The notes under the pieces: generated by a model
What the model was told of the DNA's origin: nothing
The model's database searches: none
What the model saw: only the letters and a program-made list of their open reading frames with translations
Source of the DNA: a virus
Virus genome (UHGV): UHGV-0116081
Length of the DNA stretch: 12,142 nt
Reading direction: 5' to 3' (one strand)
Position numbers and translations under genes: made by a program
Part shown: positions 1 to 12,142 of the stretch, piece after piece
Layout: each line of letters starts with the position of its first letter
How positions within the stretch are numbered: position 1 is the first letter of the stretch

Positions 1-223
1 GCTTATTCAGTACATCAATGGCTTTTTCGTCACTTGGGACGGACTCACTAAGCGGCTCTGCCACTTTGTATTTTTTTACCCCAAAACGGATGAAAGGGTT
101 GAGCATCAATGAAACCATGCTTTGCTCGAAGTCATCCATGTTGGCCAATGCCTCTTTTTTTGCATTGGTTCCCATAGCTTTCATTTCGTCCAGCTTATGC
201 TTAAGTGCGATCAACTTTTTCAT
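1..223 (-). CDS. hypothetical protein, N-terminal part only (ORF continues past window start)
   Basis: Not in the track because it is truncated. Reverse-strand ATG at 223..221 overlaps the TGA stop (222..220) of the upstream 156-aa ORF as ATGA, then reads open for 74 codons to the window edge (hand translation: MKKLIALKHKLDEMKAMGTNAKKEALANMDDFEQSMVSLMLNPFIRFGVKKYKVAEPLSESVPSDEKAIDVLNK...). The N-terminus loosely resembles my recollection of the T4 DNA ligase N-terminus; unverified. Confidence 0.45.
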   Translation of the reverse strand, partial: MKKLIALKHKLDEMKAMGTNAKKEALANMDDFEQSMVSLMLNPFIRFGVKKYKVAEPLSESVPSDEKAIDVLNK

Positions 224-690
224 TGTTGTTTTGCCTCCATATGTTGATCGATTTGCTCATGTGTTTCTTTTGTTGTTTCTTCAAGCAACGCCGCATACAC
301 GTCAGTGATCGCTGTTTGTGATGTGGCGCTCTTCTTAACCATGCTATTAATCGTTACACTGTCACGTTTTCGTTTTATAGTTCTGGCTTGTTTATTCCGT
401 TCTTCAACCTCCTTAATGAGCGCGGTCATATCTTCGAAATACAGAGATTCTCCTTTACGAATCTCTTCAACCATCATTTTTAACGCCTTGCATTTGCCTG
501 CTTTAATAGCGGTTGCGCACGACTGGAAAGAAGTTCGAGGAAGACGGTTTTCTTTGAAGGCAAGAATGGTGTGCTGGCAAACGGAATAGCTGCAATATGT
601 CGACTCACCGTTTATCTTTACTTCCTCACAACGAAGTGAATAACCGTTATTTCCTGAAATAGAAGGGATTTTTGACAAATCAGCTTTCAC
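220..690 (-). CDS. hypothetical Cys-containing protein (possible zinc-binding N-terminal region, charged helical C-terminus)
   Basis: 156-aa ORF with a GTG start at 690..688 and no in-frame ATG until residue 72. Five Cys in the first 67 residues (C21, C33, C37, C58, C67), then a Lys/Glu-rich tail. Stop overlaps the start of the next ORF (ATGA). No family recognised. Confidence 0.55.
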   Translation of the reverse strand: MKADLSKIPSISGNNGYSLRCEEVKINGESTYCSYSVCQHTILAFKENRLPRTSFQSCATAIKAGKCKALKMMVEEIRKGESLYFEDMTALIKEVEERNKQARTIKRKRDSVTINSMVKKSATSQTAITDVYAALLEETTKETHEQIDQHMEAKQQ

Positions 691-757
691 AATTACCGCC
701 AGAAATAATCTTGTGCTTACCTATCATTATTTGCGTAAAAAACGACACACAGAGAGC

Positions 758-1534
758 TTACCAACTTCCCCAGCTAATCATCTTGCGCTGATCGCTTTCT
801 AAGCGATAAGGGGCAAGAAGCTCTGTGACATGATTGGTGGCGTATGATTTAGCCTCTTGCTTAATCATCGGTAATTCGTTAGCAATCCTGACCATCTTCC
901 CAGCAAATTCCGCCATTACGCCATCACAAGCCTTCCCCGCATCAACAACGATATGCACAAGATCCAACTGGCTTTTGCACATATCCCAAAGAGACGCGTA
1001 TTCACTCTCTCTGATTACATTTACGGCACTATTAGCCCCTTTATTAATCAAAACTTCCAACAGATTTTTCGGGGTAACGAAATCTGCTTTCAGAGATAAT
1101 GTCTTTTCACCACTTATCGAACGCAAGTACTCTTCGTAGTTATTCTTCATCAAACCGCTGCTGCGCATTGCTAGAACTGCTTCTTGAATGGCCGCGTCAA
1201 TAGTTTCGTCGTTTGAAAGACAAAAAACGGTATTTGTGTAGATCACTCTGCCATCAAGCCATGCTCCAACCTGCACTTTAAGACTGAGCGGGTTTTCTTT
1301 GCTAATAAAAACAACTAATGCAGAACGCCGTGCACAAGAAGGTTCGCCCCATACGTGTAACTCAACCTTCAGATAAGGCAACCCTGGTAGCGGGATCTCG
1401 TCCATACGAGCAGCGATATGATTCATTGCTGTATTGACGGCCTTTCCAATGATGTCTAGTCGACTGCCCTCGCTGATTTCTAAACCTGTTTTATCAATGA
1501 TGTCACAGGCCAATTTCTGAATTTCGTCTTTCAT
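758..1534 (-). CDS. hypothetical protein
   Basis: 258-aa ORF with ATG at 1534..1532 preceded by AGGAG about 7 nt upstream on the coding strand. No transmembrane segment or motif I recognise. First gene of a three-gene same-strand cluster. Confidence 0.7.
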   Translation of the reverse strand: MKDEIQKLACDIIDKTGLEISEGSRLDIIGKAVNTAMNHIAARMDEIPLPGLPYLKVELHVWGEPSCARRSALVVFISKENPLSLKVQVGAWLDGRVIYTNTVFCLSNDETIDAAIQEAVLAMRSSGLMKNNYEEYLRSISGEKTLSLKADFVTPKNLLEVLINKGANSAVNVIRESEYASLWDMCKSQLDLVHIVVDAGKACDGVMAEFAGKMVRIANELPMIKQEAKSYATNHVTELLAPYRLESDQRKMISWGSW

Positions 1535-1626
1535 ACCAACTCCTAGCTAACAGATGAAAGTATTCTTACAAATAACTAAGTATGTATCTACTTATCATTT
1601 TAGGCGCAATAGTTCCCTATACGAAG

Positions 1627-1653
1627 ATGCCGGGCTTATAGTCTGCCCGGCAT
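1627..1653 (-). other. GC-rich stem-loop just downstream of the lipoprotein stop (9-bp stem ATGCCGGGC/GCCCGGCAT, 9-nt loop)
   Basis: Inverted repeat read directly from the sequence. No U-tract follows on the minus-strand transcript, so it is not a canonical intrinsic terminator; may be an RNA-stabilising or intercistronic structure. Confidence 0.3.
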
Positions 1654-1659
1654 TCACCA

Positions 1660-2073
1660 TTAATGAGCTACAGCCTCACTGTTGCACATCTTTCTGTAGA
1701 CCTGCTTATAACGCTGTAAGTCATGAGGATCATTAGGTGCCAACGACTTCGATAGGATTTTGTATACCACCCCTTTCGAAAACATGCCCTTTGGCTTCAT
1801 TTCGAGTTCAACAACATATGAGTGATAGCCCACGTATGCACCAAAGCCATTTTTGGCGTTCAATTCTCCGCACACAAAGCCTGTCACACTCCCATCGTCA
1901 TGATCAGTCCTGACAAACTTATCTTTCCTAAACATCACCGACGTGGGATCTTTCATATCATCCGCAATTGCTTGTTGGCCCAGAGCAATAGCCTTCTCGT
2001 CTGTAGGCTTACACCCCACTAAAGCAAACAAAGACAATAAAGCTCCTGTTAAAATCAGCTTATTTTTGCTCAT
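1660..2073 (-). CDS. lipoprotein (predicted signal peptidase II substrate)
   Basis: 137-aa ORF with ATG at 2073..2071 and AAGGGAAG upstream. N-terminus MSKNKLILTGALLSLFALVGC has a positive n-region, hydrophobic core and lipobox L-V-G-C. Mature domain not recognised. Confidence 0.7.
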   Translation of the reverse strand: MSKNKLILTGALLSLFALVGCKPTDEKAIALGQQAIADDMKDPTSVMFRKDKFVRTDHDDGSVTGFVCGELNAKNGFGAYVGYHSYVVELEMKPKGMFSKGVVYKILSKSLAPNDPHDLQRYKQVYRKMCNSEAVAH

Positions 2074-2306
2074 GTTGGCTTCCCTTTATTTATATTTATC
2101 GCAGGTATTAGTTAATCAAAACACGAGCAGTGCCACAATAATTAAATGGCGTACTATTTCTTATGGTTATTAGTTTCCTAGTAACTTTACCGACCATAAA
2201 CTAAATCAACAAAGCTGACATATTAACTAAATTTAAGTACCCTTTTTCGCACACTTGACGCTTGCCGCGTCTAAACTGTTCATCCTATATCAACAGAACA
2301 AAAAAT

Positions 2307-3452
2307 ATGAAATACATAAAATCTTCATCGTTGCTGGCATTAACTTTGCTTTTTAGCTCTGGATTCGTTAACGCAGACAATAAACAAACGCTGATAGAAG
2401 CCGCTACCGCAGGGGATACCGCAGCACAAAGTGAGTTAGGGACAAATTATTTTGATGGTGTCAATGGTTTTGATAAGGATGTAGTTGAGGCCAAGAAGTG
2501 GATTGATCTCGCTGCAGAAAAGGGAGACAAAGTAGCATATTATGCACTTGGGGTTATGTACACATTTGGCGAGGGTGTAGATAAAGACTTAAATAAAGCA
2601 GTTGAGTACTACAAACTTGCGGGAGATGCTCGTGAAGGTAGAGCCTATAACAATCTTGGTGCTATTTATCAAAAGGGGATGCTTGGTAAAGTAGATCATG
2701 CGCTCGCCATTAAATACTTCAAACTAGCCTCTGATGCCGGGTATGTTAAAGCTAGCTACCTTCTTGGTGCGTATTACCAATATGGTAAAGGTGTACAAAA
2801 GAGTTATAAAAAAGCTTTTACTTATTACAAAAAAGCGGCGGATCAAGGTAGTTCAGATGGCATGTTCGCATTAGGCACCTTATACGATGACGGTTTAGGT
2901 GTTAAACGCAACGATGCCGAAGCAATTAAGTGGTATAAAAAAGCTGCTGAACTCGGAAACGCCGATGCCATGACAAATCTTGGCATTATGTATGAGTATG
3001 GTGAAGGGGTTAAAAAAGACTATAAAAAAGCAGCTGAGCTTTATCAGGCTGCTTGTGATAAAGAAGATAAAAATGGCTGTGATTACATTGCAGAACTGAA
3101 AGAAAGCGGCAAATATCGAGCGCCGGCTTCCAAAGCCAAAACAAAATCCGCCACCCAGCGACTTATTGCTAAATCCATTGATAAGGGCGTTAACGCTACA
3201 TTTACCTGGCAGGGTGATGATGCTACCTTCACCGCTAATGATGGCAAAGTTGACTGCACCTTCCTGAAGGATTTTTCAGAGAAAGGAGGCAATCTGGCTA
3301 CCTCGTTTGTTTGCACCGATAACGTTCAAATCATACTGAAGCAATTCAGAGATACCAAGAATGCCTACCTCGCGGTAATGACTGACAACTTCAACACAGA
3401 AGTTAAATCATTTTCGGTCAATGTGTACGTGACTAATACTGGTTCAAACTAA
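2307..3452 (+). CDS. secreted Sel1-like repeat (SLR/TPR-like) protein with a non-repeat C-terminal domain
   Basis: Track ORF begins at a TTG (2262); the first ATG at 2307 gives MKYIKSSSLLALTLLFSSGFVNA, a classic Sec signal peptide with a VNA cleavage site. About six tandem ~36-aa Sel1-type repeats (e.g. AEKGDKVAYYALGVMYTFGEGVDKDLNKAVEYYKLA; ADQGSSDGMFALGTLYDDGLGVKRNDAEAIKWYKKAA). The last ~110 aa are non-repetitive with 4 Cys. Sampled lines are AT-rich (about 30-50% G+C by hand count). Confidence 0.85.
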   Translation: MKYIKSSSLLALTLLFSSGFVNADNKQTLIEAATAGDTAAQSELGTNYFDGVNGFDKDVVEAKKWIDLAAEKGDKVAYYALGVMYTFGEGVDKDLNKAVEYYKLAGDAREGRAYNNLGAIYQKGMLGKVDHALAIKYFKLASDAGYVKASYLLGAYYQYGKGVQKSYKKAFTYYKKAADQGSSDGMFALGTLYDDGLGVKRNDAEAIKWYKKAAELGNADAMTNLGIMYEYGEGVKKDYKKAAELYQAACDKEDKNGCDYIAELKESGKYRAPASKAKTKSATQRLIAKSIDKGVNATFTWQGDDATFTANDGKVDCTFLKDFSEKGGNLATSFVCTDNVQIILKQFRDTKNAYLAVMTDNFNTEVKSFSVNVYVTNTGSN

Positions 3453-4628
3453 TGCAGCTATGCCTTTTACCTTGCTTAAAAGTTCAAGCTGTCGTGAATA
3501 AGGTTTTGCGCAATAGTAGGCTTTGATAATCTGCCCCGGTGTCGCATCGCCGGGGTCGAGTCCTTCCTCGCCCAAACACGCTACTTTGACATTAAGACCG
3601 ATACTGGTCAGTCGCCTGGCTGCGGCCATCGTGTTGCGTATAGCTTGCTTTTCACTATCCCACATCATAATCACATTACGTAATCCACGCGCCTTGAGCG
3701 TCAGGAACGCGCCCAACTGATCTTCTGCATCCTGAGTGGTGTTACCAGATAGATGCATCCCGAACGTTCCTATCGGTTCCACGTAATCGCGTAATGTTTC
3801 TTCATCAAAAATAGCTCGTTTAACCCCCATAACATCGAACGCCCCCTCACAGACAACTACAGTCTGTTTGCCGACTGCATTGTGGCCGTTGTAGAGAAAT
3901 TTACCCGATGCTGGCAGCTGCATGGGGAACAGATACCGGCGTTCTGCTGCACCGGTAATGTCACGACCCTGGAAGGTCTTCATCACGCCATCCAGATCGT
4001 AAACCGGTATCAGTATTCGCATATCGAATACCTGTCCTTTGACCTGGTCTGTGTACGGATCGACGTATGCGTGCTTGCCTTCGACGCAGTAACGCAGATC
4101 AAAGTATTTGGCCAGCTCCGGGGAAATCTGGCGCTCCACCAGATAATCAGGAAGACGACCGTCAATGGGGAGTTCGTAATGGCGCGGGAGAGCTACCGGT
4201 CCTTCCAGTTCAACCTTGCTGGCCAGCACGATCTCTTCCTTCTTCGGCGCCCAACCTTGTGAGATCAGCGCGTTCTGGACGTACTCTTCAAAATCGCGAC
4301 GGGATTTGCCGCTGTAATGCTTTAGGAAGACCAGCTTATTGAACTGAATCTCTTCGGGATGATCACCTGCAAAGCATTTGCCGACACCACTGGTCAGGTT
4401 GAAATAAACCTTCCAGTTTGAGCTGCCGCATACCGGACACTCTTTAATGTTGACCTCTCGTCCGCGAGTACTGACTCCACCATGACGGTAGATGATCCCT
4501 TCCATATCGAGCCATTGCTCAAAATCCAGCTCGGTCAGTAATTCTTTCAAGTCGCTCACGTTCTTACCCCTGTTTTTTGCAGGTAATATCTTGATAAGCC
4601 TCGGTATTTGAATACCATAAAGGCTCAT
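3444..4628 (-). CDS. DNA primase (zinc-ribbon + TOPRIM; DnaG / T7 gp4-primase-like)
   Basis: Zinc-ribbon-like CPVCGSS...CFAGDH followed by a TOPRIM signature VVVCEGAFDVMGV and a downstream acidic motif MMWDSEKQ. Start set at ATG 4628..4626 (MSLYGIQ...); the track's longer ORF begins at a TTG at 4655, so the start is uncertain by 9 codons. Lies directly downstream of the helicase gene. Confidence 0.8.
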   Translation of the reverse strand: MSLYGIQIPRLIKILPAKNRGKNVSDLKELLTELDFEQWLDMEGIIYRHGGVSTRGREVNIKECPVCGSSNWKVYFNLTSGVGKCFAGDHPEEIQFNKLVFLKHYSGKSRRDFEEYVQNALISQGWAPKKEEIVLASKVELEGPVALPRHYELPIDGRLPDYLVERQISPELAKYFDLRYCVEGKHAYVDPYTDQVKGQVFDMRILIPVYDLDGVMKTFQGRDITGAAERRYLFPMQLPASGKFLYNGHNAVGKQTVVVCEGAFDVMGVKRAIFDEETLRDYVEPIGTFGMHLSGNTTQDAEDQLGAFLTLKARGLRNVIMMWDSEKQAIRNTMAAARRLTSIGLNVKVACLGEEGLDPGDATPGQIIKAYYCAKPYSRQLELLSKVKGIAALV

Positions 4629-4682
4629 GTGTTTTTTCTTTTGTGGTTTTGGCAAAAGAGAAATTTGTTCTCTTCTGGAGAC

Positions 4683-4709
4683 AGGCGTGGAGAGTGTTTC
4701 CCCACGCCT
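4683..4709. other. stem-loop in the helicase-primase intercistronic gap (8-bp arms AGGCGTGG / CCACGCCT, 11-nt loop)
   Basis: Inverted repeat read directly. On the plus strand it is followed by TCTTTTTT, but no plus-strand gene precedes it; on the minus transcript no U-tract follows. Function unknown. Confidence 0.3.
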
Positions 4710-4715
4710 TCTTTT

Positions 4716-6056
4716 TTAGAGGACGTCCATAATGCGTTCGATGAATCGCATTTGTTCGAGGTTCTGCTTAACGCGGATGCTTACGCCGCCTTTCTGGTTA
4801 CGTGAACCAGCGAAGTAAAGACGCGCTTCGCCTTTCGCTTCTTCTTCTTCCGTTTTGTTGATAGTGATAACGAGGTCAGCGATACGCACCTTCTCGATGT
4901 TGTCCGCTGCGTGCATCATTGTAGCCACCTCAGAAGCGCCACCTTCTCTGTTAGTCTGCGATGCCGTGATGCCGGCAACGTTGTGTTTGTCGTACAGCGC
5001 ACGCAGGTCAGTGTAGATGCTGCGAATGTTAGCGCGGTCGTCGCGGAGGTCGTAGCTGGCACGCATCAGGTCAGCGTAGTCGACCACAACCATATCGGGG
5101 ACCATACCGTTGGCTTTCATGCTGCCCAACATACGGTCCAGATCTGCGGGCGACATGCTTCCGGACGGTCGTTCAACAATCCACAAACTTCCCACGCCTT
5201 TCGTCGCACCCAGCTCCGCCAGTTTGCGATGGACGTCATCGCGACGTTCCACCAGCCTGGACATTTCGGTCTCAGACAGACGGGCGTCAAAGCGATCTGA
5301 CAGAATGGAGGTGTGAACTTCCAGCGACAGATACAGGACGTTGTAACCGGCAAGCGTGGCGTTGATGGAAAACTCCCCCATCGCCGTCGATTTACCAGAC
5401 TTAGCGAAGCCCATAAACAGCACCATTTCACGCTTTGCCCAGCCTTTCTGGTAAAGCAGTTTGTCGAGCAGCGGGAGGCCGGTAGTGATGCTGTTTGGCA
5501 CGTAATCGTCGGACGCTTCGTACTCACGGGCCTTGTAACGCTCCGCTGATTCTGCGAAGTAATCGTAAATGCCGGTCGCTTCGTTAGAGCCAATTTGCTG
5601 GACCTTAGCCATGATTGCCATCGCGCCCTGGAAATCACCCTTCTCTTTCATCTCAGCCGCTTTAATTAGCGCATCGTCGAACGCTACGCTTTTAGCAAAT
5701 GTCGCGACCTGGTCGACCATGTACGCCGTATCTGACAGCTTCTCAGCGAGAATGCGCTTAAACGCCTCAACAACGTCAGGGAACAGCTCTTCGCGGATCG
5801 TCTTATCGCGTTTGGCGCGTTTGAGCATGTCGAGGATGGCTGATGATGATGGTGCGCTCTTATACATTCTGTAGTAGCCCGACACCATGTTAACCAGAAT
5901 GGAGTTAGCCGCATTAGAGAACTGGTTTGGGGCAACCAGATCGCCTGCGCGAGTCAGAAACTCATGGTCGCGACAGAAGTAGGCTGCGAGTCTATTCTGG
6001 AAGTCGTCGTCGAACTCTTCAGACAACCCTCGTCCTGTGTGGCAAAGTTCGGTCAT
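4716..6056 (-). CDS. replicative DNA helicase, DnaB family
   Basis: 446-aa ORF with ATG at 6056..6054 and AAGGAA upstream. Walker A FMGFAKSGKST, a Walker B-like hydrophobic stretch ending in D (MVVVDYADL), and a DnaB H4-like motif ASQTNREG. Length and motif order fit the DnaB C-terminal RecA-like domain plus an N-terminal domain. Confidence 0.85.
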   Translation of the reverse strand: MTELCHTGRGLSEEFDDDFQNRLAAYFCRDHEFLTRAGDLVAPNQFSNAANSILVNMVSGYYRMYKSAPSSSAILDMLKRAKRDKTIREELFPDVVEAFKRILAEKLSDTAYMVDQVATFAKSVAFDDALIKAAEMKEKGDFQGAMAIMAKVQQIGSNEATGIYDYFAESAERYKAREYEASDDYVPNSITTGLPLLDKLLYQKGWAKREMVLFMGFAKSGKSTAMGEFSINATLAGYNVLYLSLEVHTSILSDRFDARLSETEMSRLVERRDDVHRKLAELGATKGVGSLWIVERPSGSMSPADLDRMLGSMKANGMVPDMVVVDYADLMRASYDLRDDRANIRSIYTDLRALYDKHNVAGITASQTNREGGASEVATMMHAADNIEKVRIADLVITINKTEEEEAKGEARLYFAGSRNQKGGVSIRVKQNLEQMRFIERIMDVL

Positions 6057-6116: not shown

Positions 6117-6842
6117 TCAACAGAATCGCCGTGCTTCTTCCAGTTCTTCCGGGAAGTGCGCGTAAATCACACGCTCAGGCACGATTTCCATCAACCAGAC
6201 AGCGGAGAAGATGATACGGATGCGTTTATCTCGGGTAATGCCACGCAGACGCTCCAGAATCCACTCAAAATAGCGTTCCTGAATCGGGTCACGCTGCATG
6301 TCTCCAAGATGCTTAAAACTCACCAGAGAGTCATCCAGACGGGTTACAGCGCGTTTGGCTAACTTCTCTTCGAATATCTCGATCAACTCGGGCTGCCAGA
6401 GATGCTGGGGGCGCGGTAATTTGTCCCACAGCCGTCGTGCAGCTGCGGAAAGAACGGTGGAGATAAAGTAGTCGTATGAGCAGCAATAGCGGTCAGCAAA
6501 CTGGCGTGCTTTCCAGAGCGACGTTTTGTTGACCGTCGACAACTCCTGATATGGCACACGCTTCAGACCGGTTGTGAATGGAGCCGTCTCATAGTGTTCA
6601 CGACCATGCGACAGCATGATGTATGAGTACTGGCGCTTGTATGCCTCAGTGAAAAGGCATGTGGCCATGAGCGGGTGCATATCGCGATAGTCAAACCATT
6701 TGGTTTCGAACAGTTCCGCCTCGTCCTTGCAACGTGACAGGCCAATGTTCTCCGCTACCCACTTATCCATGACTGCGGTGTTCCACTCTGTCATGAAATC
6801 GTACTGGTCATTGTCGATAGTGTTGAAGAAGATCTGGCTCAC
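6117..6842 (-). CDS. hypothetical protein, first gene of the helicase-primase operon (candidate initiator or helicase loader)
   Basis: 241-aa ORF with a GTG start at 6842..6840 preceded by AAGGGA; an internal ATG at 6794 has no Shine-Dalgarno. No recognised motif. The functional suggestion comes from position only. Confidence 0.6.
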   Translation of the reverse strand: MSQIFFNTIDNDQYDFMTEWNTAVMDKWVAENIGLSRCKDEAELFETKWFDYRDMHPLMATCLFTEAYKRQYSYIMLSHGREHYETAPFTTGLKRVPYQELSTVNKTSLWKARQFADRYCCSYDYFISTVLSAAARRLWDKLPRPQHLWQPELIEIFEEKLAKRAVTRLDDSLVSFKHLGDMQRDPIQERYFEWILERLRGITRDKRIRIIFSAVWLMEIVPERVIYAHFPEELEEARRFC

Positions 6843-7124: not shown

Positions 7125-7892
7125 ATGGACGATTTATCGGTATACGCGAGATCATTGGATAAGGCTAAATACTATGTTTACTGTCTCTATGATACAGAAG
7201 ACAAGATGAAAAGACCGTTTTACATAGGAAAAGGCAAATCGACTCGTTGTCTCGATCACATCAAGTATCCCGATGACTCTCCCAAATCCATGCGGATCAA
7301 AGAACTTTTGGCTAATAAAAAATTAGGCATAGATATTCTTCGTCATGGTATGGATGAAACCACAGCCAAACTTGTTGAGGCGACATGCATCGACCTTATG
7401 GGGGTCGGAGAGCTTACGAATAAGGTACGAGGAAGTGGTTCCATGATGGGCAGAATATCACTGGACGCCTACCATCACTTAGTGCTGCAAGAGGAAACTG
7501 AAATTGCTCCTGAGCACGCCGGTCTTGCCTTCCTGCTAAACAGCACCTACAAGTCAGGAATGTCCGCTCTGGCATTATATGAAGCTACGCGTGGCGTATG
7601 GGCAAAGGTTCCAAGAGACGAGAATCTCAAATATGCCTACGCTACATATGGGGGCCTGATAATGGAAGTTTATCAGATTGAATGCTGGGTCAAAGCCGGT
7701 TCTCAGCAGTACTTTACAAGGGATATAGCTCTTGGCCCCGACACAAAACGTTATGAATTTGTTGGCAGAATAGCCGATGAGCATATTAGAAAACTGTATG
7801 TAGGCAAATTAATCAAGAAGCCACCAAGCTACGGCAGCCCTTTTGTGAAGGTTGGGGTGGTTAGGAATGAACATAGTGTTAGCGCGGCATAA
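7125..7892 (+). CDS. GIY-YIG nuclease-domain protein with an unrecognised C-terminal domain
   Basis: N-terminus YYVYCLYDTEDKMKRPFYIGKGKSTRCLDH matches the GIY...YIG...R...H arrangement of GIY-YIG nucleases (compare I-TevI and UvrC N-termini), with a downstream Glu (VEATCID) and Asn (TNKVRG) in plausible catalytic positions. C-terminal ~160 aa not recognised. Sampled lines are about 40% G+C, lower than the neighbouring replication genes. Confidence 0.7.
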   Translation: MDDLSVYARSLDKAKYYVYCLYDTEDKMKRPFYIGKGKSTRCLDHIKYPDDSPKSMRIKELLANKKLGIDILRHGMDETTAKLVEATCIDLMGVGELTNKVRGSGSMMGRISLDAYHHLVLQEETEIAPEHAGLAFLLNSTYKSGMSALALYEATRGVWAKVPRDENLKYAYATYGGLIMEVYQIECWVKAGSQQYFTRDIALGPDTKRYEFVGRIADEHIRKLYVGKLIKKPPSYGSPFVKVGVVRNEHSVSAA

Positions 7893-7906
7893 AGCTGACA
7901 CTGTAC

Positions 7907-7946
7907 TTATGCATTGGCGCGTACATTGCGCCAATGCATAATTTTT
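7907..7946 (+). terminator. intrinsic (Rho-independent) terminator between convergent genes
   Basis: Perfect 14-bp stem TTATGCATTGGCGC / GCGCCAATGCATAA (7907..7920 and 7928..7941) with a 7-nt loop, followed by TTTTT (7942..7946). Starts 15 nt after the GIY-YIG stop; the T-tract abuts the stop of the convergent minus-strand gene. Confidence 0.7.
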
Positions 7947-8304
7947 AACCTTTCTTCATCAACTCTCGTTTGATTTCGTCGGTACGCATCGTGACGTCGG
8001 CAGCAGTGATCGCCTCGTTCAGTTTCACGATGTCTTCGATTTCCTGCGGTGACTTCTCTGCCAGATGGAAAATGGCTGCACGAATCACATCAGAACGGGT
8101 GAACTTCTCAAAACGAGGGATAAACTTCATCATCTCCAACAGTTCGAAGTACTCGTCTTCCAGCGACATTGTGCGGCTTTTAATCTTCTCTTTGCCACGA
8201 GTCGGACGCCCCTGCGGTCTGACTGGCTGGCGCAGTGGAGTGCTGCTTTTGGCCGGTTCTTTAGGCTCATTGCGCTTTGCAAGGTCTCCCATTCTCATGG
8301 ACAT
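7945..8304 (-). CDS. small partition / centromere-binding-like protein (ParG-like, possible ribbon-helix-helix)
   Basis: 119-aa basic protein immediately downstream of parA; its ATG (8304..8302) overlaps the parA stop and is preceded by GGAGGAAG. Disordered Lys/Arg/Pro-rich N-terminus and helical C-terminus (SRTMSLEDEYFELLEMMKFIPRFEKFTRSDVIRAAIFHLAEK). Assignment is by size and context. Confidence 0.55.
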   Translation of the reverse strand: MSMRMGDLAKRNEPKEPAKSSTPLRQPVRPQGRPTRGKEKIKSRTMSLEDEYFELLEMMKFIPRFEKFTRSDVIRAAIFHLAEKSPQEIEDIVKLNEAITAADVTMRTDEIKRELMKKG

Positions 8305-8969
8305 TATTCTTCCTCCAGACTCAAGATGTAATCTACAAACTCTTCGAACTCGGCTTCTGCCTTCTTATCGCGTTCAGCGCCAGTCATTTCAAAGATAGAA
8401 CGACCTGCCTCTTCCGCATCGTCATAAACGTTACGGTTGTACAGATTGACCGGCGCAGCCTCGATGCCGAAAGTTTCGACAATTTCCTTCGCGGCCAGAA
8501 TACGTGATACCTGGGAAGGCAATGACGGACACTGGTTTATTACCGCGCGGATCTTAACTTTCTCGTTCACATTGCGAACGTTGTCGATAATCGGGTCGAT
8601 ATCACGCAGAGATTTCAAATCACGACGTTTAGGGCGCAGCGGGATGATGATTACATCAGCCATAAGCATCGCCAGACGCTGAATTTCGGAGTCAAAGCCA
8701 CCAGCATCTACCACTACATAATCAGTTCGCCCCTGAAGCGATTTAAGATGTTTGACGATGTCGTCCTGCACATAAGCGAACGGGATCAGTTCAAGATCTT
8801 CGTTCTGGCGACGGTCTTCACACCAGCTGGTCGTGGTGCGCTGGATATCGATATCGGTGACGTGAACCTTCTTTTTCTTTTTAACTTTGAGACATACCGC
8901 AATTTGCTGGGCAACGGTAGATTTGCCTGGGCCGCCTTTTGTGCCGCCAACCACAATGATCTTGGTCAT
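8304..8969 (-). CDS. parA: ParA-family partition ATPase (small, type Ib-like)
   Basis: 221-aa ORF with ATG at 8969..8967 and AAGGAAA upstream. Deviant Walker A KGGPGKST within MTKIIVVGGTKGGPGKSTVAQ, and a hydrophobic-D motif YVVVDAGGFD. Contains a lysine run KVKKKKKV encoded by an A-rich tract at about 8867..8884. Confidence 0.9.
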   Translation of the reverse strand: MTKIIVVGGTKGGPGKSTVAQQIAVCLKVKKKKKVHVTDIDIQRTTTSWCEDRRQNEDLELIPFAYVQDDIVKHLKSLQGRTDYVVVDAGGFDSEIQRLAMLMADVIIIPLRPKRRDLKSLRDIDPIIDNVRNVNEKVKIRAVINQCPSLPSQVSRILAAKEIVETFGIEAAPVNLYNRNVYDDAEEAGRSIFEMTGAERDKKAEAEFEEFVDYILSLEEE

Positions 8970-9115
8970 TGGTGAGTTTCCTTTGCGTGAATTATTGTCG
9001 TATGAAACAACTTGTTTTCTTATATGCGATATAGCCTAAATGCCTACGGCTGCGGTGTAAAGGTTATTTAGTAGGTTGTTATTGCCTATTGCTAGTAATT
9101 GTTATCATTTGTCTG

Positions 9116-9144
9116 TTGAAAAAAGTGACAATCATCTCTATATT
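9116..9144 (+). promoter_or_regulatory. candidate sigma70-type promoter (-35 TTGAAA, 17-bp spacer, -10 TATATT) facing the toxin-antitoxin operon
   Basis: Hexamers read directly at 9116..9121 and 9139..9144, each 5/6 to consensus, with a 17-bp spacer. The predicted start lies inside the inverted repeat at 9147..9169. Confidence 0.35.
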
Positions 9145-9146
9145 AC

Positions 9147-9169
9147 GTGTACGGTAAATTGCCGTACAC
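9147..9169. promoter_or_regulatory. inverted repeat GTGTACGG-N7-CCGTACAC overlapping the predicted transcription start (candidate operator)
   Basis: 8-bp perfect arms with a 7-bp spacer, read directly; sits just downstream of the candidate -10. Confidence 0.35.
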
Positions 9170-9190
9170 AATTTGATGACACATACGCAA

Positions 9191-9204
9191 TGGGCTATAG
9201 CCCA
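9191..9204. promoter_or_regulatory. 14-bp perfect palindrome TGGGCTATAGCCCA
   Basis: Exact self-complementary sequence. The core TATAGCC also occurs at 9030..9036, about 166 bp away. Candidate regulator or centromere-type binding site in the parA / TA intergenic region. Confidence 0.3.
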
Positions 9205-9250
9205 GTTAAATAACCTTTGAGTCGAAAACTCAGTTTAAATAGAGAGCAAT

Positions 9251-9277
9251 GATGGCCTTCCTACATCACCGGCCATC
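9251..9277. promoter_or_regulatory. inverted repeat GATGGCC-N13-GGCCATC immediately upstream of the antitoxin RBS
   Basis: 7-bp perfect arms read directly, ending 12 nt before the antitoxin ATG (9289), next to the AGGGGG Shine-Dalgarno. Position fits an autoregulatory operator. Confidence 0.3.
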
Positions 9278-9288
9278 AGGGGGTACAC

Positions 9289-9558
9289 ATGTCCGCACTG
9301 AAAAAGCAGCGCATCGATTTGAGATTAACCGATGACGATAAAAGCATCATCGAGGAAGCTGCCGCAATGTCTAACCAGAGCATTACCCAGTTCATGGTTA
9401 GCAGTGCATCCGAACGTGCCGTGAAGGTGATAGAGCAACACCGTAGACTGGTTCTAAGTGAAGAGTCCTGGAATCTGGTTATGGATGCTATAAGCAATCC
9501 TCCGGCACCGAACGACAAGCTGAAACGAGCTGCCAATCGTCTGAAAAGCATGGAGTAA
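9289..9558 (+). CDS. DUF1778-type (TacA/AtaR-like) antitoxin, ribbon-helix-helix
   Basis: 89-aa ORF with ATG at 9289 and AGGGGG about 5 nt upstream. Sequence pattern (KKQRIDLRLTDDDKSIIEEAAAMSNQSITQFMVSSASERAVKVIEQHRR...) matches the length and layout of DUF1778 antitoxins that pair with GNAT toxins, and it sits directly upstream of a GNAT ORF. Confidence 0.8.
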   Translation: MSALKKQRIDLRLTDDDKSIIEEAAAMSNQSITQFMVSSASERAVKVIEQHRRLVLSEESWNLVMDAISNPPAPNDKLKRAANRLKSME

Positions 9559-9565
9559 TTTACTC

Positions 9566-10087
9566 GTGAGCAATACGACGATCGAGATTTTCTCTGGAGA
9601 GAACGATTATGATCTAAACGGTTTTGATTGCGGCGAAGAGTCACTAAACGCATTTTTGACCAACCACTTAAAAAGACAGCATGAAGGAAAAATTCTTCGC
9701 GCTTATGTGCTTTGCACTAAAGAAGAAATACCAAAGGTATTAGGTTATTACACTTTGTCAGGCAGCTGCTTTGAGAAAGAAACCTTACCTTCAAAGAGTC
9801 AGCAAAAGAAAGTGCCTTATCGGAATGTCCCAAGTATCACTTTAGGCAGACTGGCTTTGGACAAATCTCTTCAAGGTCAGGGGCTTGGCTCAATGCTTGT
9901 AACTCACGCAATGCGTGTTGTGTACAATGCATCTCTTGCGGTAGGCATTCATGGGCTTTTCGTTGAGGCGTTGAACGATAAAGCCAGGGCGTTTTATAAA
10001 AGTTTGGGCTTTATCCAGCTGGTTGGTAACAACGATCGTTCTTTGTTCTATCCAACAAAATCTATCGAAAAATTGTTCGAAGAATAA
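9566..10087 (+). CDS. GNAT-family acetyltransferase toxin (TacT/AtaT/ItaT-like)
   Basis: 173-aa ORF with a GTG start at 9566, 7 nt after the antitoxin stop, with GGAG inside the antitoxin 3' end. GNAT acetyl-CoA-binding region (ITLGRLALDKSLQGQGLGSMLVTHAM) and overall pattern typical of toxin-type GNATs. Confidence 0.8.
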   Translation: MSNTTIEIFSGENDYDLNGFDCGEESLNAFLTNHLKRQHEGKILRAYVLCTKEEIPKVLGYYTLSGSCFEKETLPSKSQQKKVPYRNVPSITLGRLALDKSLQGQGLGSMLVTHAMRVVYNASLAVGIHGLFVEALNDKARAFYKSLGFIQLVGNNDRSLFYPTKSIEKLFEE

Positions 10088-11672: not shown

Positions 11673-12142
11673 TTACTCTGCTGGTATTGTTGGCCAGTCA
11701 ATATCCGGTGCCGTTGATGTGTCAATGCGGTTCAATAAAACTCTATACTTCTTCCATGCAGTCAGCAACGATGCTTCTTCCTCCGTTGCAATCTCCAAAT
11801 CTACAGCATCCTGAAGTGGCGCAATGTGCTCGCTGGCTACCTGCATCAGACTTTTTTTTGTTTCTTCCGCTTCCCGTACCTGAAACAATTTTTCTGTTTC
11901 CTCATCCTTCTCCCAGGATGTGCCGTCCCACTTCTGATATTCCCCATCCGGTGATAACCAGGTGACATTTTCCGGTAATGGCCCAAGTTCAGAAATAAAC
12001 AACGCGTCCCCTGATTCCACGTCATAGACCGTTTTACCCCTGTGGTCTTCAACGAGACTCCATGATTTATTTTCGCTGTTGAATACGGCCACGAAGCCTG
12101 CCGGAATATCTGGCGGTGCAATATCGGTACTGTTTGCTGGCA
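11673..12142 (-). CDS. tfa: tail fiber assembly protein (Tfa family), N-terminus beyond window end
   Basis: C-terminal sequence ...[61 protein letters not shown] closely matches what I recall of enterobacterial prophage Tfa proteins. The track's GTG start at 12092 is probably internal: the frame stays open upstream to the window edge (...[25 protein letters not shown]...), which also matches the Tfa N-terminal region. Confidence 0.85.

Follow-up and report, generated by a model that had tools for sequence, protein, structure and literature searches.

The DNA examined here is a window of 12,142 nucleotides (nt) from the virus genome UHGV-0116081, and our subject is the group of three minus-strand genes at its left edge (1..1534). 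The window comes from an SSU5/pHCM2-type Escherichia coli phage-plasmid and is 99.7% identical to NZ_CP022167. Its bases 1..1800 match 187 PLSDB plasmids, nearly all of them non-mobilizable E. coli/Shigella replicons of ~110 kb with NZ_CP022167 as the best match, and also four phage records, including Cyrano and CMS-2020a at ~93%. Phage-plasmids of the SSU5 supergroup have been described previously (PMC7969092). Within this element, the minus strand of 1..1534 is the distal end of the replication-gene block, which runs from a helicase through a primase and a strain-specific insert to a 258-amino acid (aa) protein, a 156-aa protein and an ATP-dependent DNA ligase. We refer to the position of the 258-aa protein as the X slot, and to the 156-aa protein, after its four invariant cysteines, as Cys4. 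The same trio is present as SSU5_042-044 and CYRAN_34-36, where the two non-ligase proteins are annotated as hypothetical. In the comparisons below, loci carry L numbers, with L001 being NZ_CP022167, L002 Cyrano and L004 SSU5.

The 258-aa gene (758..1534, minus strand) begins with an ATG, five nucleotides (TTGGT, 1535..1539) behind the Shine-Dalgarno sequence AGGAG at 1544..1540, and ends with a TAA at 758..760. A spacer of 67 nt (691..757) follows, with GGCGG as a weak Shine-Dalgarno sequence before the GTG start, at 690, of the Cys4 gene (220..690, minus strand). The ligase ATG (223..221) overlaps the Cys4 stop codon TGA (222..220), forming an ATGA at 220..223 behind a GGAGG at 238..234, and the ligase frame leaves the window at its left edge after 74 codons (1..223, minus strand). 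A first-pass annotation, made from the letters of the window alone, had described a tightly coupled three-gene minus-strand cluster. The three frames, the ATGA junction and the last frame running off the window are as it described them, but because the 67-nt spacer parts the first two genes, only the last two are translationally coupled. In many relatives, the X-slot and Cys4 genes overlap, or a small open reading frame (ORF), called Y below, occupies the position of the spacer and carries the same C-terminal tail as the X-slot protein.

The start of the Cys4 gene is polymorphic. At codon 702..700, the window and L001 have CTG, L016 has ATG and L017 has TTG; the GTG at 690..688, in contrast, is conserved. 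PGAP places the start at 702, giving a product of 160 aa. The differences at codon 702 leave the exact start uncertain by four codons, and they also explain why public records give a product of 160 aa, 156 aa or a truncated 85 aa, the full frame being intact. We considered the 85-aa "truncated" forms (cluster P0054, 282 member sequences) as pseudogenes and rejected this, since they are gene-caller artefacts of the non-ATG start and the N-terminal half is intact. Between positions 1 and 2400 there was no Rfam match, there were no notable repeats, and there were no promoter-like (sigma-70) or terminator-like sites on the minus strand. As judged by their PHROG matches, by full-length homologues down to 33-40% identity and by low ratios of nonsynonymous to synonymous substitution rates (dN/dS), the three genes are real and not chance ORFs.

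The third gene belongs to a known family. In NZ_CP022167, which supplies the leftward extension proposed by the first-pass annotation, and in Cyrano, the partial frame reaches its full length at 440 aa and carries the annotation DNA ligase. The 440-aa protein of L001 matches phrog_114 (E 2e-125) and, with 48.8 bits against a cut-off of 26.2 (E 9e-13), the nucleotidyltransferase domain PF01068, which lies outside the window. Motif I reads K164-LDGLR in L001 and SSU5, and KxDGxR in the ligases of most relatives. Over its full length the protein aligns to Pmar-Lig (6rau, E 3e-26), T4 ligase (6dt1, E 1e-24) and the P10VF ligase (9fzx, E 4e-17); residues 11-125 align to the DNA-binding domain of T4 ligase (5wfy, E 3.6e-6) and residues 11-206 to 6dt1. 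For the C-terminal OB domain, the Pfam OB models reached only E 0.07-0.16 on the 440-aa protein; the 6rau alignment extends to residue 427, and the ligases of related loci match both PF01068 and PF14743 (OB_2). The third ORF is thus recognisable by its sequence as a T4/Pmar-Lig-type ATP-dependent ligase, an ordinary member of its class with predicted activity, and the part inside the window is the start of the N-terminal helical DNA-binding domain.

The resemblance to the N-terminus of T4 DNA ligase, noted at first, was therefore correct, as the matches to 6dt1 and 5wfy demonstrate. The accompanying statement that none of the three proteins carries an assignable motif holds for the two upstream proteins, which have no Pfam or NCBIfam family, and fails for the ligase; well-known families consequently do not account for the whole trio. 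T4 gp30, Pmar-Lig and the ligase of Rhizobium phage P10VF are three-domain enzymes with DNA-binding, nucleotidyltransferase and OB domains, and the 440-aa protein, of which only 74 codons are inside the window, aligns with them end to end. Unlike the ligase of this element, T4 gp30 has no two dedicated (here putative) upstream partner genes. T4 ligase is reported to have a unique mode of sliding-clamp interaction (PMC6212786).

Two runs of seven adenines on the coding strand near the ligase start had been proposed as possible slippage sites. They are present, as T7 on the plus strand, but at 71..77 and 155..161 and not at 69..76 and 154..160. A function of these runs in slippage or phase variation, controlling ligase expression, would fit the fact that, of the three homopolymers of A or T in the window that reach 7 nt or more, two sit within 91 nt at the start of this gene. 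Nevertheless, both runs encode a conserved Lys-Lys, in "GVKKYK" and "NAKKEA", respectively. Synonymous changes interrupt them in Cyrano (AAAGAAA at the first run), in SSU5 (GAAGAAG at the first and CAAGAAA at the second) and in L014, and they are absent from distant ligases. Furthermore, every +1 or -1 shift runs into a stop codon within 30-71 codons (30-38 codons at the second run), and there is no conserved alternative frame at the runs. Functional slippage is therefore highly improbable, and by this comparison the runs are accidents of codon choice or, at most, points prone to mutation. The third of the long A/T runs in the window, a T8 at 11852..11859, lies inside a 139-aa ORF (11673..12092, minus strand).

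The 156-aa Cys4 protein matches two PHROGs without an assigned function, phrog_5055 (E 2e-84) and phrog_4558 (E 1.4e-7), and has no Pfam, NCBIfam, PADLOC or PDB sequence match. Its close homologues are confined to enterobacterial phage-plasmids. The family is far larger: among 1.8 billion cluster representatives, a profile search recovered 183 Cys4 clusters at E<=1e-3, mostly with proteins of 170-230 aa. Among 56 aligned members, all match phrog_5055, 55 match phrog_4558 and none has a Pfam domain. Invariant in this alignment are N15, C21, C38, C58, C67 and E76. Five N-terminal cysteines had been noted at first, and C21, C33, C38, C58 and C67 are indeed present, but C33 is not conserved and only four are invariant in the family. 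The invariant cysteines are spaced C-x16-C-x19-C-x8-C, without any CxxC pair, and their codons are found on the minus strand at 628..630 (C21), 577..579 (C38), 517..519 (C58) and 490..492 (C67), spanning 490..630. They suggest a structural metal site, presumably for Zn or an Fe-S cluster.

The Cys4 domain (residues ~10-86) is followed by a basic linker (87-125, isoelectric point (pI) 10.3) and an acidic C-terminus (126-156, pI 4.5); a charged tail had been noticed at first. The signature of the family is S-x2-G-x-N-x5-C ... Y-x-V-C-[LQ]-H ... C-x2-A-I-x4-C-P-A-x-K-M-x2-E-E-x2-A-G-x-A-L-Y-F, and the 156-aa protein belongs to it both by its profile match and by the pattern N-x5-C...Y-x-V-C...C-x2-A-I-x4-C-x-A-x-K-M-x2-E-E. 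Downstream of the signature, the members have a low-complexity basic or Pro-Ala linker and a conserved amphipathic acidic helix (TDVYAALLEE here, GYAAAINAAI in long forms). A terminal G-x-S-L-L-E-x-A-R motif of the long forms is absent from the 156-aa protein. Several candidate relationships were rejected. A PARP-type zinc finger (C-x2-C-x(~30)-H-x2-C) does not agree with a protein that has no CxxC pair and a family in which none of the 56 members has a Pfam match. Weak matches of the two upstream proteins to DUF1133, Cluap1, the Smr domain of 2vkc and 4l8j were far below threshold. Two apparent fusions of the Cys4 domain turned out to be a spurious repeat protein (P0183) and an error-ridden read-through from X into Cys4 (P0091).

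The 258-aa protein in the X slot matches a further PHROG without an assigned function, phrog_4248 (E 4.9e-131, residues 1-258 over profile positions 1-266), and has no Pfam, NCBIfam, PADLOC or PDB sequence match. We found 29 homologues, all in Enterobacteriaceae contigs of ~100-116 kb, with identities of 41% to SSU5_042 and ~33% to the Klebsiella versions. In the AlphaFold2 (AF2) model (pLDDT 85, pTM 0.73), an N-terminal alpha/beta domain is made up of two helices, a four-stranded antiparallel sheet (residues 53-106), helices and one further strand, and a C-terminal helical bundle (158-257) ends in a helix of 52 residues. A nearly invariant W92-x-D-G95-R96 is located at the turn between strands 3 and 4 of the modelled sheet. 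Neither PDB nor BFVD yielded a significant structural match to the model. In most relatives, the slot is occupied instead by a protein of 139-168 aa with a WGR domain (PF05406); all 14 short forms tested scored above the Pfam cut-off of 22 bits, with 22-50 bits.

What all occupants of the X slot have in common is their C-terminal end, W-[GA]-x-[WF]. The tail reads SWGSW in the window (761..775, minus strand, directly before the TAA at 758..760), GWATW in SSU5, WGMF in L014, WGTW in L015 and WGAFG in Pseudomonas phage hairong. Among non-redundant WGR proteins of the slot, 21 of 21 terminate in WG[STA]W behind a linker of the PEPEPERGE type. The tail is the sole segment that hhalign aligns between the slot families, and in each locus the motif is found in a single one of the 124-573 stop-to-stop segments. 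Moreover, 20 of 32 IMG/VR loci encode, between the WGR and Cys4 genes, the small helical ORF Y of 64-95 aa (for example L019:3752-3979, L024:3781-3993 and L043:3688-3939), for which the window has no counterpart. Y ends in RPEWG[ST]W just as the WGR protein does, so two proteins of one module carry one tail. The tail looks like a short docking peptide for a conserved partner in the module, a putative role suggested by its sequence and position.

Tails of this kind are familiar from replication proteins. The single-stranded DNA-binding protein SSB (DDDIPF), T7 gp2.5 and T7 gp4 have C-terminal tails ending in an aromatic residue, with which they dock on replisome partners. The WGR relatives are similar in that a nucleic-acid-binding domain is followed by a Pro/Glu-rich linker (PEPEPERGE) and a terminal aromatic WGSW, and the sharing of one tail by two different module proteins, X and Y, resembles the pair T7 gp2.5 and gp4. 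However, the sequence of the motif differs from those tails, and in the window the tail ends a long modelled helix rather than an acidic disordered linker.

The association of Cys4 with the ligase is constant. In every locus with downstream sequence, amounting to more than 40 divergent loci, the Cys4 gene is directly upstream of the ligase gene and often overlaps it. Exceptions concern the tightness of this arrangement, with several loci having one small ORF or a gap of 300-740 nt between the two genes. Such an extra ORF, without a Pfam match, is found in L005 (L005:6603-6905, 100 aa) and L014 (L014:5147-5638, 163 aa), and gaps of 300-740 nt are seen in many IMG/VR loci. In L005, L006, L008, L010 and L015, Cys4 shares 4 or 8 nt with the next gene, which is the ligase in four of the five loci and the small 100-aa ORF in L005.

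The wider order, in which a primase, the X-slot gene, Cys4 and the ligase follow each other, recurs across the relatives, in answer to the earlier proposal to look for synteny of the trio. In SSU5, the helicase and primase are followed by one reverse gene, a 264-aa protein, a 158-aa Cys4 and the ligase. In the Nickievirus phage hairong, a primase, a 264-aa protein, a 213-aa Cys4 and the ligase are found, with the Cys4 being 34% identical (E 5e-12) and the ligase 27% identical to those of the element studied here. The same order is present in divergent metagenomic contigs, in which the downstream ORFs were verified as ligases. A scan of IMG/VR, seeded with a five-sequence Cys4 alignment, gave 32 loci; by a local HMM pipeline, primase, WGR, Cys4 and ligase were in order in all 26 that were long enough, and the rest were consistent fragments. 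The scan of genome contigs returned a single locus, a Paraburkholderia metagenome-assembled genome with the full module. In L006 (L006:3-2465), a metagenomic contig, Cys4 and the ligase come straight after the primase. Because this locus lacks an X-slot gene, Cys4 and the ligase form the invariant pair, and the slot protein is dispensable in at least one lineage. In the literature searched, we found no description of the module of primase, WGR or X protein, Cys4 and ligase, neither in work on WGR domains in phages nor elsewhere, and none of Cys4 as a constant ligase neighbour or of the shared WG[ST]W tail.

Purifying selection acts on each gene of the trio, as indicated by dN/dS, which is lowest for the ligase (0.02-0.05), followed by the Cys4 gene (0.04-0.16) and the 258-aa gene (0.23-0.29). 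Compared with Cyrano, codons 76-175 of the 258-aa gene (1010..1309 in the window) have a dN of 0.15-0.22, against 0.03-0.07 elsewhere in the gene, and this hot spot corresponds to surface helices 109-140 of the model. The replication block (220..6056) is a mosaic with respect to Cyrano and SSU5. The helicase of the window is near that of SSU5 (dS 0.24) and far from that of Cyrano (dS 2.8), Cys4 and the ligase are near Cyrano (dS 0.06-0.10) and far from SSU5 (dS >2), and the primase is equidistant from both (dS 0.8-0.9). This pattern implies recombination breakpoints inside the module.

Our best reading, to which we give about an even chance, is that the two upstream genes encode ligase or lagging-strand accessory proteins, that is, nick-sealing helpers of the element's own replisome. 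We infer this from gene order and motifs, and the interactions of Cys4 with the ligase and of the X-slot protein with its partner are putative. Cys4 would bind metal (Zn or Fe-S) and act as a subunit or cofactor whose synthesis keeps pace with that of the ligase, and its basic linker and conserved amphipathic helix could tether DNA or a partner. The 258-aa protein would be a lineage-specific replacement, or an unrecognisably diverged form, of a WGR adaptor that binds DNA ends or nicks, and it would dock through its WGSW tail on the same partner as the WGR proteins, in the manner of SSB, T7 gp2.5 and T7 gp4. Together, Cys4 and the 258-aa protein may help to find and seal nicks, either in Okazaki-fragment joining or in repair, within a replisome that would include a Pol III alpha-like polymerase; such a polymerase is encoded by Cyrano. 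The first-pass suggestion of replication or repair accessory genes rather than defence genes agrees with the conserved order of primase, X, Cys4 and ligase and with the lack of PADLOC matches.

Several observations weigh against this accessory role. The first group concerns the link of the 258-aa protein to the WGR proteins. It has no Pfam WGR match at E<=1, and hhalign of its family against the slot WGR proteins gave probabilities of 1.4-3%, covering the last five or six residues only; restricted to the N-terminal domain, the probability was 0.1%. A PDB fold search with the model also returned no WGR match. Homology between the 258-aa family and the slot WGR proteins was accordingly rejected, by hmmsearch and by three hhalign set-ups, and a search for homologues from the slot protein of L014, which looks intermediate, returned only itself. 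It is nonetheless conceivable, if unlikely, that the 258-aa protein is a true, extremely diverged WGR protein, an orthologue with added N- and C-terminal helices and not a replacement. It shares the slot and the tail with the WGR proteins, and by eye its modelled four-stranded sheet and helix, with W92-x-D-G95-R96, resemble the WGR layout. In addition, the 264-aa slot protein of hairong, of the same size, contains RWGK and has a weak Pfam WGR match (E 0.07), and two small phage WGR proteins were among the BFVD matches of the model, at ranks 13 and 31 with TMt 0.50 and 0.36. Against such an orthology are the profile results just given, in which the tail alone aligns, and the BFVD E-values of 0.05-0.09, which are not significant.

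The remaining objections concern the other partners and the gene order itself. The AF2 model of Cys4 is unusable (pLDDT 46), so that its fold and metal site are guesses. In the window, the 258-aa gene is uncoupled from the Cys4 gene by the 67-nt spacer, and its dN/dS, 5-10 times that of its neighbours, would be equally typical of genes engaged in host interaction or an arms race. Finally, all syntenic loci belong to one broad phage lineage of ~105-113 kb that shares a whole block of PhoH, DnaB, primase, ligase and CobT genes, and since the loci share this block, the conserved order could reflect inheritance and not a functional linkage.

In that case, the X-slot protein and Cys4 would be passengers of an early operon with jobs unrelated to the ligase, such as control of initiation or copy number, host takeover, anti-defence or transcription regulation. 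We regard this synteny by descent as possible but on the unlikely side. Besides the shared block and genome size class, it would account for the turnover in the X slot between WGR and non-WGR proteins, the extra Y in some loci and the missing X in L006. It would also suit the elevated dN/dS of the slot gene with its hot spot at codons 76-175, and the basic linker of Cys4 would suit a DNA-binding regulator just as well. On the other hand, the adjacency survives down to ~27% ligase identity, whereas other genes in the helicase-primase interval come and go, and the Cys4-ligase overlaps of 4 or 8 nt recur in separate lineages. None of the 56 Cys4 members has a helix-turn-helix or known regulator domain, and PADLOC gave no matches. 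Mere descent is further opposed by the existence of WGR-ligase fusions in bacteria.

In many bacteria, WGR domains are fused to ATP-dependent ligases of the NT-OB_2 type (Williamson & Leiros review, PMC7470946), which provides a Rosetta-stone link between the WGR proteins of the slot and the ligase. In both systems, a WGR module is paired with a ligase core, in the phage loci as PF01068 plus PF14743 beside a stand-alone WGR protein. The phage WGR protein is, however, separate, a Cys4 gene is interposed for which no equivalent is known in the fused enzymes, and the slot protein of the window is not detectably a WGR protein. A looser parallel can be drawn with eukaryotes. The WGR domains of PARP1-3 contact the 5' end at DNA breaks, and Lig3 carries a zinc finger. 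By analogy only, PARP1 and DNA ligase III resemble the phage module in that cysteine-rich metal-binding and WGR modules are tied to the recognition and sealing of breaks. There is no homology, no CxxC...HxxC signature, no zf-PARP match and no ADP-ribosyltransferase on the phage side.

Taking these comparisons further, Cys4 and the WGSW-tailed slot proteins might constitute an undescribed, widely conserved cofactor system of phage ATP-dependent ligases. This system would parallel the eukaryotic "zinc finger + WGR" nick sensors without homology to them and with its parts on separate proteins, and several proteins of the module would share WG[ST]W, a new C-terminal peptide, for docking in the manner of the SSB tail. 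We offer this idea tentatively and, taken as a whole, consider it rather improbable.

Another option, in which the trio would form a plasmid-borne cassette for anti-phage defence or of the toxin type, could be supported by the accessory cassettes nearby, namely a pair of the TacA/TacT type (9289..10087) and a Sel1 protein. However, neither the three proteins nor two of their distant homologues matched PADLOC-DB at E<=0.1. The genes reside in a core replication block, which is conserved in Pseudomonas Nickievirus phages without the enterobacterial plasmid background, and purifying selection is strong on the whole trio, the ligase included. A defence or toxin cassette is therefore barely credible.

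Upstream of the trio, the window encodes the other parts of the replication block. The upstream neighbour of the module in all relatives is a DnaG/Toprim-type primase, which in the window (3444..4655, minus strand) is parted from the module by a two-gene insert and is annotated as DNA primase in the records of NZ_CP022167 and Cyrano; its Pfam scores are just under the gathering cut-offs (DNAG_N 24.0 versus 26 bits, Toprim_2 22.0 versus 22.1 bits). It is preceded by a DnaB-like replicative helicase (4716..6056, minus strand; DnaB_C, E 6.5e-13). Directly upstream of the helicase, a 241-aa protein (6117..6842, minus strand) without a Pfam match is a candidate helicase loader or initiator. Pfam-negative proteins of ~240 aa are also found between PhoH and DnaB in L005, L008, L010, L011 and L014, the likeness being one of position and length.

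Between the primase and the 258-aa gene, the window has a two-gene insert (1660..3452). It consists of a 137-aa ORF with a lipoprotein-type signal (...LFALVGC) and no Pfam match (1660..2073, minus strand) and, on the plus strand, a 396-aa Sel1-repeat protein (2262..3452; Pfam Sel1, E 2e-52), the end of which overlaps the primase stop. The window belongs to the group of SSU5, pHCM2 and Cyrano but differs from them by these two genes. At the same position, Cyrano has nothing but a primase-X spacer of ~75 nt, and in SSU5 another gene is found, on the reverse strand. The region looks like a hot spot for moron insertion.

Further along, 7125..10087 holds plasmid-maintenance and accessory genes. These are a GIY-YIG (LEM-3-like) protein (7125..7892), a ParA/MipZ ATPase (8304..8969) with a 119-aa partner (7945..8304), a TacA antitoxin (9289..9558) and a GNAT toxin of the TacT type (9566..10087). 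The ORFs at the right end of the window line up with the lysis genes of Cyrano (holin and endolysin) and with its P1-S-like tail-fibre gene.

Both the element and its class of ligase are well known, and what is new, modestly so, is a conserved module with uncharacterised neighbours of the ligase. Clinical E. coli, Salmonella and Klebsiella commonly carry SSU5-type phage-plasmids, which use a helicase, primase, Pol III alpha and ligase of their own and can replicate in either state, plasmid or lytic phage. Should the two upstream proteins not be cofactors, the locus would be an ordinary stretch of a well-known mobile element. If they are cofactors, two large PHROG families without a function would gain a role, the fusion of WGR domains to some bacterial ligases would be explained, and a new short docking motif would be defined. 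Of practical interest, such cofactors could also represent accessory factors that alter the nick-sealing or end-joining behaviour of a T4-like ligase, a workhorse enzyme class.

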